Shown here: in pieces, positions 44,937 through 56,446 of the stretch | Position numbering within the stretch: position 1 is the stretch's first letter | How the letters are laid out: each line of letters starts with the position of its first letter | Source: Geopsychrobacteraceae bacterium | GTDB taxonomy: Bacteria; Desulfobacterota; Desulfuromonadia; Desulfuromonadales; Geopsychrobacteraceae | Direction: 5' to 3' | Length of the DNA stretch: 64,000 nt | NCBI GenBank assembly: GCA_963662315.1 | Contig: OY759353.1 | Coordinates: 992,001 to 1,056,000 of the forward strand | Notes under the pieces: generated by a model | The model's input: the letters and a program-made list of their open reading frames with translations, nothing else | Databases searched by the model: none | What the model was told of the DNA's origin: nothing | Program-made: the position numbers and the translations under genes

Positions 44937-45307
44937 AGACGATTCCTTCTAAAATAAAGAGTATGTTCGGTTTATAGTTTAACGTCTCCTCCTCAGAACG
45001 GGTGGGTGAAGTCCTGAGAAAATGAGATCATTGCGGTCCCTAGCGAGGAGTAAGATGAGTTTGCGGGAACACCAAACCCGTTAAAAATTAGACGGTGTTA
45101 ATGTTAACTTTACCGAACAAAAAGAAACTATTCAAGTGTTTTTTTATAACGCATATCCGTATCATGCTGACGAACGGTTTGGTAGCTCTGGTCATTGATA
45201 TTAAAGCTCGTCGCAACAGTCACTGGGAAATACCTTTCTGAGAGAGTTTTTTCTACATACTCGTTAAATAAACGAAAGGAAATATTCATGTTTGACCATT
45301 TAAGTAC

Positions 45308-46265
45308 GCATTGCACCGTCGGCCGGCTGGTCAGATGCTGGCTGTTCCCTTGGAGAAGCGAAGCCCGAGTACGGGTTCTTTAAAAAAGGGCGTTTTGTGC
45401 TTACTATTTGTCGCCCGCCTGGGACAAATAGTAAGGCGTCGTGCGGGGCGCAACACCGCGACCTTGCTTGTTTCATTTAAGGCATAAAAGATAAAACCGG
45501 CGGGTCCCGGCCCGGCAGCCGGATTCATTTTTTCCAGCGATGAAAAAACGAATCAAAAAAATCTTTTAAAGTCAAACACACTGACGATAATAGATTCGGT
45601 CTACGTTTTATTGTTGCTACCAGCAGTTAACAGACCGCCCAACGATGCTGTTGCATCCATGGGCAGAACCGAATTGGTGTGAACACATAAAATTACGGTT
45701 CTGGCCATCAGGCGCGCATTGCGCCGTCGGCCGGCGGGTTAGATGCTGGATGTTTTCTTGGAGAACCGACGCCCGAGTACGGACCCTTTAAAGAAGGGCG
45801 TTTTGTGCTTACTATTTGTCGCCCACCTGGGACAAATAGTAAGGCGTCGTGCGGGACGCAACACCGCGATCTTGCTTGTTTCATTTCAATCATAAAAGAC
45901 AACACACCGGGTCCCGGCCCGGCAGCCGTTACCAGATGCCGCGCCGGAACAAAAGAAACCGACAAGCGAGACAGGTCTCCCCGGATAAAAACGTAATCTG
46001 TCACTGCTTGGGCCGCAGTATTTACCAAAGTATCCTGAATCCGTGGGACTTCGTCATGGTGTGCTGACTTGCCCGGATACCCGGCCTTATATACTGTTTC
46101 TGTTCGTCGGCTCACAGCTTTTCACTCGGGCTTCCTCCAGACCTCTCCTCACGGAGACGCCCTTGCCGTCGGCTAGTACTTTAATGACATCACATAGTTG
46201 TGATGCTAGGATTCTACGTACAGGGGACTTACGCCCCCATAAGATCACGCCCATGCCGGGCGTAC
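45308..46265 (-). mobile_element. Group IIC-attC intron shell 1 (5' ribozyme domains plus repeats; 3' end missing)
   Basis: Minus strand starts TTGT|GTACGCCCGGCATGGGCGTG, with class C-like domain I-III sequence; near-identical to 48095-48429. Confidence 0.85.
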
Positions 46266-46369
46266 ACAAAGTCGTTCAAGCAGACTCTGGTAGCGGCAGT
46301 CGAAGCCAGAAAACCATTGGCTACAAGCCAACGCAGCATACCGACGCTGCTTAACTCCACCCGTTATAC
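46266..46369 (+). other. attC site 1 (remainder after intron insertion)
   Basis: AC-AAAGTC-GTTCAAGC...GCTTAAC-TCCACCC-GTTATAC. Confidence 0.8.
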
Positions 46370-46377
46370 CTAAGAAA

Positions 46378-46986
46378 ATGACTGAATCAGAAAAATTATT
46401 CGAAGAAATATTTAGTGAAAAAGAAATCTACTTTAGGAGAGTTCCAACGTCATCACCACGTACCCCTGATTATCAGGTAATTGTGAATGATTCTTACTCC
46501 TACTGGGAAGTGAAAGAACTGGAAAAGAATGATGATGAAGCAAAAATTTTGAATCAGCAAAAACCTGAAATTTATAGCGTAGATTCAACTCGTGTCGAAA
46601 ATAGCATCAAGAGTGCATGTGGCCAATTCAAGGACTACAAAGTAACCAATTACCCTTGCGTTGTTGTGCTATACGATTCACGAGAATTTGAGATAATGGA
46701 TGTCCTTTTTCATCAATTCGTCCAGACCGCAATGCTTGGCAAAGCTGAATATATGCATCAAAAGGATGGGTCTCTTGTTGAAATTAAACGTAACCACGGT
46801 CTGCTTACAAAGCGGAAACGGTACATTAGCGCTGTAGCAGTAATGCACCAAAAAACAAGAAAAATGGTCTTTTATCACAATCCAAATGCAAACATTCCTC
46901 TTGTGTCATCCGACTTGTTGAAAAAGTTTGAGGACCAGTTTCAAGCCGTATTTAAAGAAAAAAGGCTGGAGTGGATAAGGGTATAA
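46378..46986 (+). CDS. Gene cassette: PD-(D/E)XK-like nuclease-fold protein
   Basis: TPDYQV...YWEVKEL; AT-rich; bounded by GTTATAC and GTATA[AC]. Confidence 0.7.
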   Translation: MTESEKLFEEIFSEKEIYFRRVPTSSPRTPDYQVIVNDSYSYWEVKELEKNDDEAKILNQQKPEIYSVDSTRVENSIKSACGQFKDYKVTNYPCVVVLYDSREFEIMDVLFHQFVQTAMLGKAEYMHQKDGSLVEIKRNHGLLTKRKRYISAVAVMHQKTRKMVFYHNPNANIPLVSSDLLKKFEDQFQAVFKEKRLEWIRV

Positions 46987-48429
46987 TCGGGTAGCCGGGG
47001 GTTTTGCTCCCCCAGCCCCCACACCACCCGGCATGCGGGTCGCTACCCAAGCGCTTCGATGAAATTACCGGGCCGTAGCCGGGTAATGTCGCTTCACCCA
47101 CAGGTCTTTGACAGAAACTAAACCTTGATCCTTCAGCCACTGGTTAGTCATGCCGGAATGAGCCGCCAATCTGCGGGACATGGCCCACGGTCCGTTGCGG
47201 TTCGGACCGGCCCGAATGGCGGTAAAACGTTCGGTTCCAAGAGCTAGCAGCTTCCGAACCTTGGTCCGGCACCAGCGCCATTGTTTCCAGTAGCACAGCC
47301 GCACTCGCCGACGAATCCAGCCATCGACCTCCGGGTAACCCTCGGCGATGCCGAAGTACCCCATCCAGCCCCGGATATAGGTGGACAGCTTGGCGAGACG
47401 ATAGTCCATGGTAACAAACAAGCTGCGTCTGTTTTGCGGTTCTGGCCATTAGGCGCGCATTGCGCCGTAGGCCGGCCGGTTAGATGCTGGATGTTCCTTT
47501 GGAGAGACGAAGCCCGAGTACGGACCCTTTAAAAAAGGGCGTTTTGTGCTTACTATTTGTCGCCCGCTTGGGACAAATAGTAAGGCGTCGTGCGGGGCGC
47601 AACACCGCGACCTTGTTGGTTTCATTTCAATCATAAAAGACGAAACCGGCGGGTCCCGGCCCGCCAGCCGGATTCATTTTTTCCAGCGATGAAAAAACGA
47701 ATCAAAAAAATCTTTGAAGGTCAAACACACTGACGAGAATAGATTCGGTCTACGTTTTATTGTTGCTACCAGCAGTTAACAGACCGCCCAACGATGCTAT
47801 CGCATCTACGGGCAGAATCGAATTGAAGTGAATACAGGAAAATGCCAACGGCATTTTTGCGGTTCTGGCCATCAGGCGCGCATTGCGCCGTAGGCCGGCC
47901 GGTTAGATGCTGGATGTTCCTTTGGAGAGACAAAGCCCGAGTACGGACCCTTTAAAGAAGGGCGCTTTGTGCTTACTATTTGTCGCCCGCCTGGGACAAA
48001 TAGTAAGGCGTCGTGCGGGACGCAACACCGCGATCTTGCTTGTTTCATTTCAATCATAAAAGACAACACCACCGGGTCCCGGCCCGGCAGCCGTTACCAG
48101 ATGCCGCGCCGGAACAAAAGAAACCGACAAGCGAGACAGGTCTCCCCGGATAAGAACGTAATCTGTCACTGCTTGGGCCGCAGTATTTACCAAAGTATCC
48201 TGAATCCGTGGGACTTCGTCATGGTGTGCTGACTTGCCCGGATACCCGGACTTATATACTGTTTCTGTTCGTCGGCTCACAGCTTTTCACTCGGGCTTCC
48301 TCCAGACCTCTCCTCACGGAGACGCCCTTGCCGTCGGCTAGTACTTTAATGACATCACACACGTGTGATGCTAGGATTCTACGTATAGGGGACTTTCACC
48401 CCATAAGATCACGCCCGTGCCGGGCGTAC
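46986..48429 (-). mobile_element. Group IIC-attC intron shell 2, both ends intact, RT domain replaced by tandem repeats
   Basis: 5' GTACGCCCGG; 3' DV/DVI ...CCGGGTGGTGTGGGGGCTGGGGGAGCAAAACCCCCGGCTACCCGAT; splits R'' GTATA|AC. Confidence 0.88.
47065..47410 (-). pseudogene. C-terminal maturase fragment of a group II intron-encoded protein
   Basis: LSTYIRGWMGYF...DGWIRRRVRLCYWKQW...LKDQGLVSVKDLW; no RT motifs. Confidence 0.88.
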
Positions 48430-48498
48430 ACACAAGCGCATGTTGTCGGACTGGTTTTCCGCTGCGCTCCAAACCAGCCGCAAATGCGGGCGTTATAA
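48430..48498 (+). other. attC site 2
   Basis: ACAAGCGCATGTTGTCGGACTGGTTT...AAACCAGCCGCAAATGCGGGC-GTTATAA. Confidence 0.88.
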
Positions 48499-48513
48499 CT
48501 TTATGGAGAGAAT

Positions 48514-49323
48514 GTGACCGACTGGATATTCAGGGGCAATAGAGAAGACTTTGATATAGATACATATCTTAATGACTTCGCCTATATCTACTGGGCTGTT
48601 AAGCAACCAAAGCATCAAGCTGAAATGCAAGTTGGTGATAGGGTTTTCATATGGCGCTCTAAAGGTAAATCTAAAGATCCATATGGGCTAGTTGCGTACG
48701 GAAAAATAGCTGAAGCTCCAATAGATAAGAACAAAGTACTTTATCCTAAATTCTTACTTGAAGGTTACTGGGAGAAAAGAGAAGTTTCTGAGATAAAGGT
48801 CGGAGTAAAGCTTGAGGAAACTCGGCTTGATCTTAAGAGCGGGTTGGTCGAGTCGAGCCTGCTGCTCAGAGATGCTGATCTATCAAAAATGCAGTTACTA
48901 ACTGCAAGGCAAGGTACGAACTTCAAGTTAGCAGCAAGCGAATTTAGCAAAATTTGGGCGTTGTGGTGCAGCGAAACACTAGACTTTGAAGATGATGAGT
49001 ATGAAACAGATGAAAGTAAAATGCGTCTTAGGATTCACAAGGTAAGGGAGCGAGATAATCAGTTAGTAAAAAAAGCAAAAGAGAGATTCGTTAAGGATAA
49101 TGGATCTTTATTTTGCGAGGTATGCGGGTATGATTTTCTGCCCAAGTATGGTTTTAGTTATGCAGAAGCACACCATAAAAAACCATTGAATGAAATAAAG
49201 GCTGGAGAAAAAACTAAGGAATCTGACCTTGCTATCGTATGTGCAAACTGTCACCGAGCAGTGCATCGTATAGAGACAGAAGACCCATGGAATGAACTTT
49301 TGAGTATTCATGGCAAGTTATAA
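48514..49323 (+). CDS. Gene cassette: EVE-domain plus HNH endonuclease
   Basis: WIFRGN...YW...MQVGDRVFIWRS (EVE/PUA-like); RERD...CEVCG...EAHHKKPL...CANCHRAVH (HNH); bounded by GTTATAA and TTATA[AC]. Confidence 0.88.
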   Translation: MTDWIFRGNREDFDIDTYLNDFAYIYWAVKQPKHQAEMQVGDRVFIWRSKGKSKDPYGLVAYGKIAEAPIDKNKVLYPKFLLEGYWEKREVSEIKVGVKLEETRLDLKSGLVESSLLLRDADLSKMQLLTARQGTNFKLAASEFSKIWALWCSETLDFEDDEYETDESKMRLRIHKVRERDNQLVKKAKERFVKDNGSLFCEVCGYDFLPKYGFSYAEAHHKKPLNEIKAGEKTKESDLAIVCANCHRAVHRIETEDPWNELLSIHGKL

Positions 49324-50556
49324 TCGGATAGCCGGGGGTTTTGCTCCCCCAGCCCCCACACCACCCGGCATGCGGGTCGCTACCCAAGCGCTTCGATGAA
49401 ACTACCGGGCCGTAGCCGGGTCATGTCGCTTCACCCACAGGTCTTTGACAGAAACTAAACCCTGATCCTTCAGCCATTGGTTGGTCAAGCCGGAATGTGC
49501 CGCCAGTCTGCGGGACATGGCCCATGGACCGTTGCGGTTCAGACCGGCCCGAATGGCGGTAAACCGTTCGGTTCCAAGAGCTAGCAGCTTCCGAACCTTG
49601 GTCCAGCACCAGCGCCATTGTTTCCAGTAGCACAGCCGCACTCGCCGACGAATCCAGCCGTCGACCTCCGGGATATCGTGGTAACCCTCGGCGATGCCGA
49701 AGTACCCCATCCAGCTCCGGATATAGGTGGACAGCTTGGCGAGACGATAGTCCATGGTAACAAACAAGCTGCGTCTGTTTTGCGGTTCTGGCCATCAGGC
49801 GCGCATTGCGCCGTCGGCCGGCTGGTCAGATGCTGGATGTTCCTTTGGAGAGACAAAGCCCGAATCCGGACCCTTTAAAAAAGGGCGTTTTGTGCTTACT
49901 ATTTGTCGCCCGCCTGGGACAAATAGTAAGGCGTCGTGCGGGACGCAATCCCGCGACCTTGCTGTTTTATTTTAATCATAAAAGATAAAACCGGCGGGTC
50001 CCGGCCCGCCAGCCGGATTCATTTTTTCCAGCGATGAAAAAACGAATCAAAAAAATCTTTGAAGGTCAAACACACTGACGAGAATAGATTCGATCAACGT
50101 TTCATCGTTGCTACCAGTAGTTAACAAACCGCCCAACGATGCTGTCGCATCCATGGGCAGAACCGAATTGGTGTGAACACATAAAATTGCGGTTCTGGCC
50201 ATTAGGCGCGCATTGCGCCGTCGGCCGGCTGGTTAGATGCTGGAGGTTCCTTTGGAGAGACGAAGCCCGAGTACGGACCCTTTAAAGAAGGGCGTTTTGT
50301 GCTTATTATTTGTCGCCCGCTTGGGACAAATAGTAAGGCGTCGTGCGGGGCGCAATACCGCGACCTTGCTTGTTTTATTTATATACTGTTTCTGTTCGTC
50401 GGCTCACAGCTTTGCACTCGGGCTTCCTCCAGACTTCTCCTCACGGAGACGCCCTTGCCGTCGGCTAGTACTTTAATGACATCACATAGTTGTGATGCTA
50501 GGATTCTACGTACAGGAGACTTACACCCCATAAGATCACGCCCATGCCGGGCGTAC
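49323..50556 (-). mobile_element. Group IIC-attC intron shell 3, with a further internal deletion near 50380
   Basis: Same ends and same maturase-repeat junction as shell 2; splits TTATA|AC. Confidence 0.88.
49402..49756 (-). pseudogene. C-terminal maturase fragment, copy 2
   Basis: Near-identical to 47065-47410 with a 3-aa insertion (HDI). Confidence 0.88.
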
Positions 50557-50614
50557 ACAAATCATTTCACTGGATTTCGCAAACAGCGCGAAACCAGTGA
50601 ATTCCACGTTAGGC
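50557..50614 (+). other. attC site 3
   Basis: AC-AAATC-ATTTCACTGGATTTCGC...GCGAAACCAGTGAAT-TCCAC-GTTAGGC. Confidence 0.88.
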
Positions 50615-50629
50615 GTAAAAAGAATCAAT

Positions 50630-51052
50630 ATGAGCCCTAATTCCAAATTTCAAAATAAAGAAATTATTGAAAATGGTAACATTACCTCAGTAATGAATAA
50701 CACGAGGTGGAATTCACTTTTTTCTGACCTTTCAAACGTAACAGAAATGATTACCTACAAAGTACGTTACGTCGACGGTTCAACATGGCCGGAAGAGTTT
50801 TCAGGACATGAATACACGTCGGAAATTGAACAAATTTGGGGCAACTTTATAGCCTTCGAATGGGTAGACATAAAAACAAAAATTGAAAAACCAAAAGGTG
50901 CTCTACTCCCCCCTGAAATATTAGATGTAACAGAAAAAATAATTGAAATTTGCCTTCGAAATAAATGCAAAATATCCGTTCACGAAAAAGGGGTTATTGT
51001 ATGGGGGTATTCTCACCAGGGGCAAATACCGGCGTCACAAAAAAACGCCTAA
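50630..51052 (+). CDS. Gene cassette: DUF6678-like hypothetical protein
   Basis: SVMNNTRW...EWVDI...VWGY; bounded by GTTAGGC and GCCTAAC (51047-51053). Confidence 0.7.
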   Translation: MSPNSKFQNKEIIENGNITSVMNNTRWNSLFSDLSNVTEMITYKVRYVDGSTWPEEFSGHEYTSEIEQIWGNFIAFEWVDIKTKIEKPKGALLPPEILDVTEKIIEICLRNKCKISVHEKGVIVWGYSHQGQIPASQKNA

Positions 51053-53560: not shown

Positions 53561-54388
53561 AACATAATGAAATTAGAAAATAAAATTGTAAATTTTGGTT
53601 CTAATTTTAAACTTAGAGTCCTTCTGTTGAAGCTAAAATCGCATTTATAGCGCTACCAGTCAAAACCGCCGGGTCGCGGTAAGAGCACAGACAGCTCACG
53701 ATGCTACGCTTCTAACGGGCAAGCGACATTTGTTGATACTTGTCATCAAAATGCCAAAGGCATTTTTGCGGTTCTGGCCATCAGGCGCGCATTGCGCCGT
53801 CGGCCGGCTGGTCAGATACTGGTTGTCTCCTCGGAGAAACGAAGCCCGAGTACGGACCCTTTAAAGAAGGGCGTTTTGTGCTTACTATTTGTCGCCCGCC
53901 TGGGACAAATAGTAAGGCGTCGTGCGGGGCGCAATCCCGCAACCTTGCTTGTTTCATATCAATCATAAAAGACGAAACCGGCGGGTCCCGACCCGCCAGC
54001 CGGATTCATTTTTTCCAGCGATGAAAAAACGAATCAAAAAAATCTTTGAAAGTCAAACACACTGACGATAATTGATTCGGCCTACGTTTCATCGTTGCCA
54101 CCAGCAGTGAACAAACCGCCCAACGATGCTGCCGCATCCATGGGCAGAACCGAATTGGAGTGGCCAAGGACCAATGCAAATGCCAATGGTATTATTGCGG
54201 TTCTAGCCATCAAGCACACACAGAGGTAGCCCCAGTTGACTGAACAGGTCAGGATCGGTTGACGGTCAAGCACATGGGATTCCGTTTATTTTCATCGTTC
54301 GACCGTTCGGCTAGCTTGTCGTTCTGCGCTGACTGCAAAAGAGCTTTTGACTTAATCGAACCGACAAAATGTAGAGAAGAGTGAAGTA

Positions 54389-55987: not shown

Positions 55988-56446
55988 GTGACAGATGAAA
56001 CAGCCAGACGAGAAGCCTCACAGGCATTCCCCTTCGAGGTAGATTTTGGAGAAGAACTTAAAGGAGCTTTTTTTCTGGAAGCCTCAGGGATGGACGACGA
56101 AGCCCCGGTCATTGAGTATCGCAGCGGTATTTCCCCCGTTTTCTCCACCATTAAAATGCCGGGAATCGCCAACTACAGAAATATAACCCTGAAATGGGGC
56201 AGAGTGACCAATTGCAGCGGTTTCTGGAAGTGGATAGGCGAGATCAAGATGAATACGGTCAAACGCCGAAATATATTAATCACACTGCGGGATATAGACA
56301 ACGGATCAGTGCGTAGACAATGGTTGCTGCATAACGCCTGGCCAACCAAAATCGTTCATACTGAGTTGCAAGCCGATGGACAAGCTGTCACGATCGAAAC
56401 GTTGGAATTAGCCTGTGAAAACTTGAGCATAAATATGAGTTCCTAA
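55988..56446 (+). CDS. Orphan phage tail tube protein (T4 gp19/Afp-like)
   Basis: F.EASG...VIEYRSG...KMPG...NITLKWG...W...RRNILITLRD...W.L.NAWPTK...IETLELACE. Confidence 0.88.
   Translation: MTDETARREASQAFPFEVDFGEELKGAFFLEASGMDDEAPVIEYRSGISPVFSTIKMPGIANYRNITLKWGRVTNCSGFWKWIGEIKMNTVKRRNILITLRDIDNGSVRRQWLLHNAWPTKIVHTELQADGQAVTIETLELACENLSINMSS

Follow-up and report, generated by a model that had tools for sequence, protein, structure and literature searches.

Repeat-bearing, RT-less copies of a group IIC-attC intron in an integron cassette array of a Geopsychrobacteraceae bacterium

Group IIC-attC introns insert into the attC sites of integron gene cassettes according to a rule commonly worded TTGT/T. 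In PMC3001079, such introns (S.ma.I2, G.s.I1 of Geobacter sulfurreducens and the intron of Geobacter sp. FRC-32) occupy the bottom strand of attC, antisense to the cassettes, and encode a reverse transcriptase (RT) free of an endonuclease domain; an IIC-attC intron is shown there to block transcription from the integron promoter and to restart it from an internal outward promoter, Pout, in domain I. Here we describe three RT-less intron copies, which we refer to as shells 1 to 3, in a window of 64,000 nt, the whole stretch that was analyzed (contig OY759353.1 of assembly GCA_963662315.1, a Geopsychrobacteraceae bacterium; forward-strand positions 992,001 to 1,056,000). The host group, the bottom-strand insertion antisense to the cassettes, an outward promoter-like site in domain I and, in an intact relative elsewhere in the genome, the endonuclease-free RT are shared with the known IIC-attC introns. 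Unlike those introns, the window copies are without RT and without parts of the ribozyme and carry a foreign tandem repeat, and the genome holds fifteen repeat-joined copies against one intact intron. In combining RT-less copies with an intact relative that might in principle supply its RT in trans, they also resemble the ORF-less bacterial group II introns (those without an open reading frame) of Simon et al. 2008, as summarized in PMC4424553; the introns treated there, however, keep a working ribozyme, whereas here the region matched by Rfam model RF01998 and a sound domain V (DV) are missing and the ORF has been replaced by host repeats, not merely deleted. Full-text literature searches returned no bacterial case of ORF-less IIC/attC introns or of tandem repeats in domain IV, and a large family of ORF-less, ribozyme-truncated IIC-attC copies carrying a host tandem repeat is new. 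With moderate confidence, and judging from sequence, we favor the view that the shells are immobile, decayed relics that were homogenized by recombination among resident introns.

A genome-wide BLAST search for an intact RT donor found one, at genome positions 2849939-2851840 on the minus strand (positions are those of the window unless given as genome positions). This intron of 1902 nt, hereafter FL, begins GTACGCC and finishes CCCGAT. Its ORF is open and encodes a 446-aa RT/maturase with RVT_1 and GIIM domains and no endonuclease domain (TIGR04416, 413 bits against a cut-off of 300), and its RNA is matched by RF02001 (FL107-274), RF01998 (FL321-457) and the DV/domain VI (DVI) model RF00029 (FL1833-1902; 43.5 bits against a gathering score of 40). 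The nearest named RTs, at 78-80% identity, come from Geobacter, Geotalea, Trichloromonas and Desulfuromonadaceae (79-80% for Geobacter and Geotalea), the host group of known IIC-attC introns. By these sequence marks the donor is an ordinary IIC-attC-type intron. It interrupts a resident copy, itself truncated at the 3' side, 2 nt from that copy's 5' end and in the same attC hairpin, forming a head-to-tail pair (genome 2849674-2851840), so that occupied attC sites can be re-invaded.

Positions within the repeat are given on a 423-nt reference unit, U (47432-47854, minus strand). In terms of FL and U, the shells as delimited by BLAST (shell 1 also by RF02001) are composed as follows.

45307-46265, minus strand: shell 1; FL1-344 (45920-46265), U185-421 (45693-45928) and U19-399 (45307-45687); intron 3' part absent
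46986-48429, minus strand: shell 2 (1444 nt); FL1-344 (48085-48429), U185-423 (47855-48093), U1-423 (47432-47854) and FL1451-1902 (46986-47429)
49323-50556, minus strand: shell 3 (1234 nt); FL1-178 (50379-50556), U228-421 (50187-50380), U10-423 (49778-50190) and FL1451-1902 (49323-49775)

All three shells match RF02001 (group II D1-D4-3) on the minus strand, at 45990-46158 (116 bits), 48155-48323 (110 bits) and, with an internal deletion, 50343-50450 (42.6 bits), and maturase remnants of 118-121 aa, that of shell 2 at 47065-47421, match Pfam GIIM (E 2.8e-10 and 1.2e-9). Together with the intact relative in the genome, these matches identify the shells as RT-less derivatives of a group IIC-attC intron, as a first-pass annotation of this DNA had proposed. 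Three strings quoted in that annotation, namely a maturase-to-repeat junction (47406-47427 and 49752-49773), a repeat-to-ribozyme junction (45921-45938 and 48086-48103) and a DV sequence (47032-47057 and 49369-49394, minus strand), each occur exactly twice in the window and in 0 of 100 shuffles. Because the strings are exact and absent from the shuffles, and RF02001 is matched three times, the observation stands. The count of three copies is right as far as the shells go, but it overlooked a fourth relic in the window, and the genome as a whole holds 20 intron-derived elements.

The shells are associated with a plus-strand gene-cassette array without a promoter that extends from ~46.3 to 58.2 kb of the window. 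There is no integron integrase in the window, and the genome's sole one above the family cut-off (480.7 bits against 265) lies 1.8 Mb away. The attC sites and cassette genes that border the shells are as follows.

46266-46372, plus strand: attC forming the 5' exon of shell 1; bottom strand ends ...TTTGT immediately before the intron; weak bottom-strand fold (z -1.30)
48430-48512, plus strand: attC forming the 5' exon of shell 2; imperfect bottom-strand hairpin (z -2.05); exon ends ...TGTGT before the intron
50557-50622, plus strand: attC forming the 5' exon of shell 3; imperfect bottom-strand hairpin (z -5.66), with 0 of 200 shuffles folding as well
46378-46986, plus strand: cassette ORF of 202 aa without Pfam match; its stop codon adjoins the 3' end of shell 2
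48514-49323, plus strand: cassette ORF of 269 aa with EVE and HNH domains (Pfam); its stop codon adjoins the 3' end of shell 3

Flanking sequence is different at every shell. The 5' exons (...TTTGT, ...TGTGT and ...TTTGT for shells 1, 2 and 3) abut GTACGCC. In shells 2 and 3 the 3' exon, which begins with T, is the end of a cassette gene, and these two genes are unrelated. Insertion is into the bottom strand of attC, with precise bottom-strand GT/T ends and the cassette ORFs on the opposite strand, and the proposal that three RT-less shells lie in three unrelated attC sites is borne out by the distinct 5' exons and precise ends. The accompanying statement that the ends obey a TTGT-intron-T rule holds in part: shells 1 and 3 have the 5' form and shells 2 and 3 the 3' T, but the 5' exon of shell 2 ends ...TGTGT, so that two of the three shells have the strict TTGT form. 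Across the genome, ten different 5' exons all end in GT (nine in TGT and one in GGT), and the ten 3' ends that were read give 3' exons beginning T(A/G), which rebuild GTT-purine-rich attC boxes. For three composites (shell 2, shell 3 and a copy at genome 2915931-2916959) both ends lie in one attC.

The same evidence bears on whether the copies reflect an assembly artifact or plain segmental duplication. Repeats of 1.2-1.4 kb can mislead assemblers, but the assembly consists of one 4.7-Mb contig with a completeness rating of 99.88%, the copies are 2-8% divergent and unlike one another in structure, and all flanks are unique cassette genes and attC sites. The quoted junction strings match exactly, and the flanking DNA is different at every copy. 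We give this explanation next to no credence.

Much of the ribozyme has gone from the shells. Their only Rfam match is RF02001, partial in shell 3, with no RF01998 or RF00029 even at E <= 5, whereas the donor has both. Shells 1 and 2 lack FL345-1450 and shell 3 lacks FL179-1450, the RT-start region included; FL449/474-513 is kept in only two relics with a third kind of junction (type C, below), both of them without intron ends. No shell has a complete ribozyme (domains I-VI) or an intact RT-binding region. In the donor, DV has the usual bulge and tetraloop and a folding energy of -23.2 kcal/mol. The DV of shells 2 and 3 has lost the 2-nt bulge and reaches -12.6 kcal/mol; its fold contains a triloop and a symmetric internal loop. 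Every repeat-joined 3' end that retains DV, seven in total, carries this variant, as does a bare fragment at genome 3989444; an eighth repeat-joined 3' end, at genome 4383152, is without DV. With RF01998 and RF00029 absent, DV weakened, and shell 3 and three junction-mates reduced to FL1-178 in their 5' parts, reverse splicing by the shell RNAs would be very unlikely.

These losses weigh on one of two mechanisms of spread offered by the first-pass annotation, trans-mobilized retrohoming, in which the present composites would still reverse-splice into attC with the RT of the intact copy, as a repeat-carrying retro-MITE (a retrotransposed counterpart of a miniature inverted-repeat transposable element, MITE). 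Precise intron ends at ten different attC sites are what such movement would leave. The genome does contain an intact RT donor, which has itself recently re-invaded an occupied site, and ORF-less bacterial introns are known beside related intact ones (PMC4424553). Moreover, the intron-borne repeat units form one star-like clade, with 25 of its 31 rows in clusters that also contain intron pieces. However, the present shells lack FL321-457 (RF01998), fail RF00029 and have a degenerate DV; shell 3 and its junction-mates, although they retain only FL1-178, are found at four sites; the RT-start region kept in the two type C relics is missing from the window shells; and the polymorphisms are mosaic (below). 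We consider trans-mobilization of the present composites decidedly improbable, and the term retro-MITE possible only for a presumed, ribozyme-complete ancestor.

The genome-wide census by BLAST groups 27 segments of intron and 73 of unit into 31 clusters, of which 11 contain both intron and unit (on a single strand in all 11), 19 units only and one intron only; 21 of the 27 intron segments lie within 100 nt of a unit. When grouped by hand, the 27 segments make up the 20 elements: one intact, 15 joined to units and four bare fragments. The relic that had been overlooked in the window is the following.

53764-54310, minus strand: fourth relic (BLAST); degenerate RT-start region FL449-513 (54247-54310), a short junction segment and one unit (53764-54162)

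Neither intron end is present in this relic, its unit closes with a terminator-like hairpin, and its junction is also found at genome 3423853. Intron and repeat meet at microhomologies of about 2-10 nt, and there are at least three kinds of 5' junction: A (FL344/U185; 9-nt microhomology), B (FL178/U228; 3-4 nt) and C (FL513, 30 nt beyond the RT start codon, joined to a unit end). A minimum of five kinds is found at the 3' side, where the unit meets FL1449/1451 (X), FL1542 (Y), FL1560, FL1686 (Z; 9-nt microhomology) or FL1849. With this many junction kinds on both sides, the idea that the composite arose a single time is too simple. The individual junctions do recur: a 36-nt B junction, which retains FL1-178 only, is found at four attC sites with 0-2 mismatches and a 34-nt A junction at four sites with 0-3 mismatches, and this sharing points to common descent of each of these junctions. 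A 35-nt X string occurs in shells 2 and 3 only; a third copy has the same breakpoint and not the flanking changes. The combinations observed (A+X, A+Y, B+X, B+Z and B+FL1560) fit a tree of nested deletions, each step of which needs the shortened form to arrive at new attC sites.

Elsewhere, the X and A junction strings had no exact match in two public collections, one of genome contigs and one of metagenome contigs, and a BLAST search with shell 2 against 121 relatives, in which the top three candidates per genome were scored, gave no junction-spanning match. A sister genome (C1:3439168-3439843) has an ORF-less copy made by plain internal deletion, FL1-286 being joined to ~FL1503-1902 without repeats. 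We also observed an extra internal deletion in a B-type copy at genome 2848522-2848530, where FL1-18 runs straight onto ~FL97.

The position of the junctions raises the possibility that the composites originated at the RNA level, the intron RT having switched template from intron RNA to a repeat-array transcript and back, perhaps independently for several junction kinds. Every junction has a short microhomology, four of the five 3' junctions lie within ~40 nt of the unit end, beside a terminator-like hairpin at the expected transcript end, a second terminator-like hairpin lies amid the 5' junctions, which gather at U185-228, and the units are co-oriented with the intron in all 11 mixed clusters. 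Replication slippage or illegitimate DNA recombination would, however, be equally expected to leave microhomology and clustering at hairpins; co-orientation carries no weight if there was a single capture; and the functional strand of the unit is not settled by consensus folding with alifold (-50.3 versus -46.6 kcal/mol). An RNA-level origin strikes us as rather improbable.

We aligned the RT remnant and DV/DVI of six copies (352 columns, 50 variable and nine informative). All four gametes are present in 22 of 36 pairs of informative sites (Rm at least 4). Third codon positions account for seven of the nine informative sites, and pN/pS between RT-remnant copies is 0.08-0.5; working RT genes were accordingly the source of much of the shared variation, which was shuffled later. 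The copy at genome 2915931, for example, mixes donor-type bases at FL1707-1719 with the shell-type DV. Because the RT-remnant polymorphisms are mosaic, exchange among resident introns fits best, and gene conversion or exchange is the better of the two mechanisms that the first-pass annotation had put forward. Both DNA gene conversion and template switching during reverse transcription are compatible with the mosaicism. We also considered the maturase remnant as a selected, working mini-protein and rejected this as unproven: two of six remnants contain stop codons, and ~45% of the changes private to one shell fall at third codon positions (hand count), which is close to neutral.

Several points weigh against homogenization of decayed relics by exchange. 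The four-gamete signal comes from only nine informative sites in six related copies, and the junction combinations, taken alone, fit a simple tree of nested deletions that does not require recombination. Every A- and B-type copy departs from the donor at position 10, counted from the 5' end, and whole-length marks of this kind (position 10 and the DV variant) would also fit earlier movement of the whole element, while the ribozyme was still complete. The identity matrices are star-like and uninformative, and the absence of domain III from shells 1 and 2 is deduced from the lack of an RF01998 match and from domain II positions published for related introns (PMC3001079). Intron domain borders suggested by minimum-free-energy folding were too unreliable to use.

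The anatomy, census, junctions, ribozyme losses and mosaicism are direct observations; the order of events, the mode of capture and the DNA level of the exchange we infer as follows. Ordinary retrohoming would first have populated many attC sites with introns, inserted in the bottom strand and antisense to the cassettes. Part of the host tandem repeat would, in one lineage, have taken the place of the RT gene, and later deletions at short microhomologies would have taken away further parts of the ribozyme. The repeat-bearing interior and the deletion junctions would then have reached other attC sites mainly through homologous exchange (gene conversion or recombination) among resident copies; reverse splicing of the shells themselves would not have been the route of spread.

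The repeat itself is a multi-hairpin unit of ~380-456 nt, represented in this genome by the 73 BLAST segments at 30 loci, mostly in intergenic tandem arrays. The first-pass annotation had the intron swapping its RT for hairpin repeats, as if these were cargo specific to the intron; the units turn out to be a dispersed host family that sits between unrelated genes, since 19 of the 30 repeat-bearing clusters hold no intron piece. At genome 284655-286854, five head-to-tail units with a period near 456 nt finish in a strong terminator-like hairpin. (In this array the 75-nt spacer between units alternates two variants of a 32-nt stretch, giving a higher-order period of ~910 nt.) A subfamily, W, has a shorter period of 423 nt and a small terminator-like hairpin at the end of each unit. 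Irrespective of position, the minus strand of the contig carries 62 of the 73 unit segments. Matches to the unit or its core were found in 43 of 61 related genomes, this genome counted; whole units turned up in members of this genus and of a second genus in the family, and distant genomes have only ~75-nt modules, each made of two hairpins and a T-run.

Eight helices (50 pairs) of the unit are conserved. Among 20 units from seven genomes they are 96.9% paired, with 17 pairs changed on both sides; 0 of 500 shuffles reach any of the five measures, and slid controls are 34-47% paired. On the two strands the mean single-sequence folding energies are equal. The unit alignment contains 73 G-U against 12 A-C cells, a count that is biased because it was made on the strand on which the structure was predicted. 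Rfam 15 gave no match to the units in the window region at E <= 5, nor in three arrays from three genomes at E <= 1, where two chance-level matches fell outside units. Coding sequence was rejected as an explanation of the unit, as its short ORFs are not kept between copies and no frame is open across it.

In a tree of 48 unit segments, the intron-borne units all fall in the W clade (31 rows; support 99/99). Clusters that hold intron pieces contribute the 25 W rows noted above but no row of the other subfamily (13 rows) or of the outgroup (four rows). The W clade is largely without resolved branches, and the identity matrices are star-like, so that neither gives the order of events. Type C relics join the repeat array 30 nt past the RT start codon, and a first composite of this form might have kept the whole ribozyme and the RT-binding region. 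Such a composite would have been a non-autonomous retroelement that used the RT of its siblings to carry a structured non-coding passenger between attC sites. It would have multiplied the passenger, of whose subfamily 25 of 31 copies are now in clusters with intron pieces, and the passenger itself, with eight conserved helices in units of 380-456 nt arrayed in tandem across a genus, would be an undescribed class of structured element. We regard this as an unlikely but conceivable earlier stage.

Repetitive extragenic palindromic sequences, with the bacterial interspersed mosaic elements they compose (REP/BIME), and BOX elements are intergenic, modular palindromic repeats built from hairpin modules. 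The unit is like them in being intergenic and hairpin-modular, with ~75-nt modules that stand alone in distant genomes; it is unlike them in being far longer and in forming regular head-to-tail arrays, and no REP-type transposase flanked by hairpin modules was found around the units. Within the same bacterial group, it resembles the multicopy intergenic sequences of Geobacter (Aklujkar et al.; PMC2700814, PMC2996986 and PMC3543383), which are palindrome-based, intergenic and of unknown function. Neither a multi-hairpin tandem unit of 380-456 nt nor a link to introns was found described in the available portions of these three papers, whose supplements are partly searchable; the word intron has no occurrence in their main text as available, and the unit motifs had no match in 13 of the 19 supplement files of PMC2700814.

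A unit inserted into the intron as a derivative of a DNA transposon, either a MITE or a hairpin element of the Y1/IS200 type, would explain why the unit ends form a 13-nt inverted repeat with one mismatch. Compensatory changes that keep helices are expected of hairpins read as single-stranded DNA, and Y1 transposase genes do lie ~100-400 nt from units at several loci. Those genes, however, are inside a discrete 687-bp insertion sequence (IS) that has borders of its own and lies next to units without being bounded by them, and a Y1 transposase as mobilizer of the unit is not supported. The intron/unit junctions fall at arbitrary unit phases instead of unit ends, the units are in head-to-tail arrays, the tested hairpin pattern was matched inside units only (86 of 86 matches), and the flanks that were read contain no target-site duplication, although no dedicated search was made. 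We hold a transposon origin of the unit to be very improbable.

Other elements accompany the repeats. The 687-bp IS200-like element, which encodes the Y1 transposase, is present in four copies that are 98-99% identical (genome 3420169-3420855, 3853031-3853716, 3855987-3856673 and 3859633-3860319), beside a unit or an intron fragment. A segment of ~900 nt follows truncated repeat arrays at ~8 loci (genome 3858077-3858986, 4205954, 4210214, 4212586, 3991717 and 348528-349929 among them) and encodes a 338-aa protein without Pfam or NCBIfam match; a bacterial CdiA-CT RNase A domain is encoded by one neighboring ORF, with transposases of the IS110 and IS256 types nearby. Among the cassettes of the window, the notable genes are the EVE and HNH fusion at 48514-49323, a DUF6678 protein at 50597-51052 and a T4 gp19-like tail-tube protein that forms a lone cassette at 55988-56446.

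The shells are likely to affect the cassettes in which they lie. Terminator-like hairpins number 28 in the region against 7.2 expected. Each shell also keeps, within FL54-82, an outward promoter-like site that faces the next cassette.

46184-46212, and again 48349-48377 and 50476-50504, plus strand: outward promoter-like site (consensus scan); two hexamers 17 nt apart, with TG before the second

In the same scan, promoter-like sites were not enriched overall (five found against 6.1 expected). The position of the site resembles that of the published Pout in domain I of IIC-attC introns (PMC3001079). These predictions suggest that the shells likely block read-through by means of their terminator-like hairpins and that the retained promoter-like site may restart transcription of the next cassette.

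Under our favored account, this genome illustrates the decay of a population of integron-homing introns, in which the RT would have been lost to a host repeat and ribozyme parts lost at microhomologies, the copies being homogenized by exchange. Even as they decay, the shells still occupy attC sites, where cassette transcription is probably blocked and restarted. The case also reveals, in Geobacter-like bacteria, a tandem repeat that is conserved, highly structured and without a match among described RNA families.

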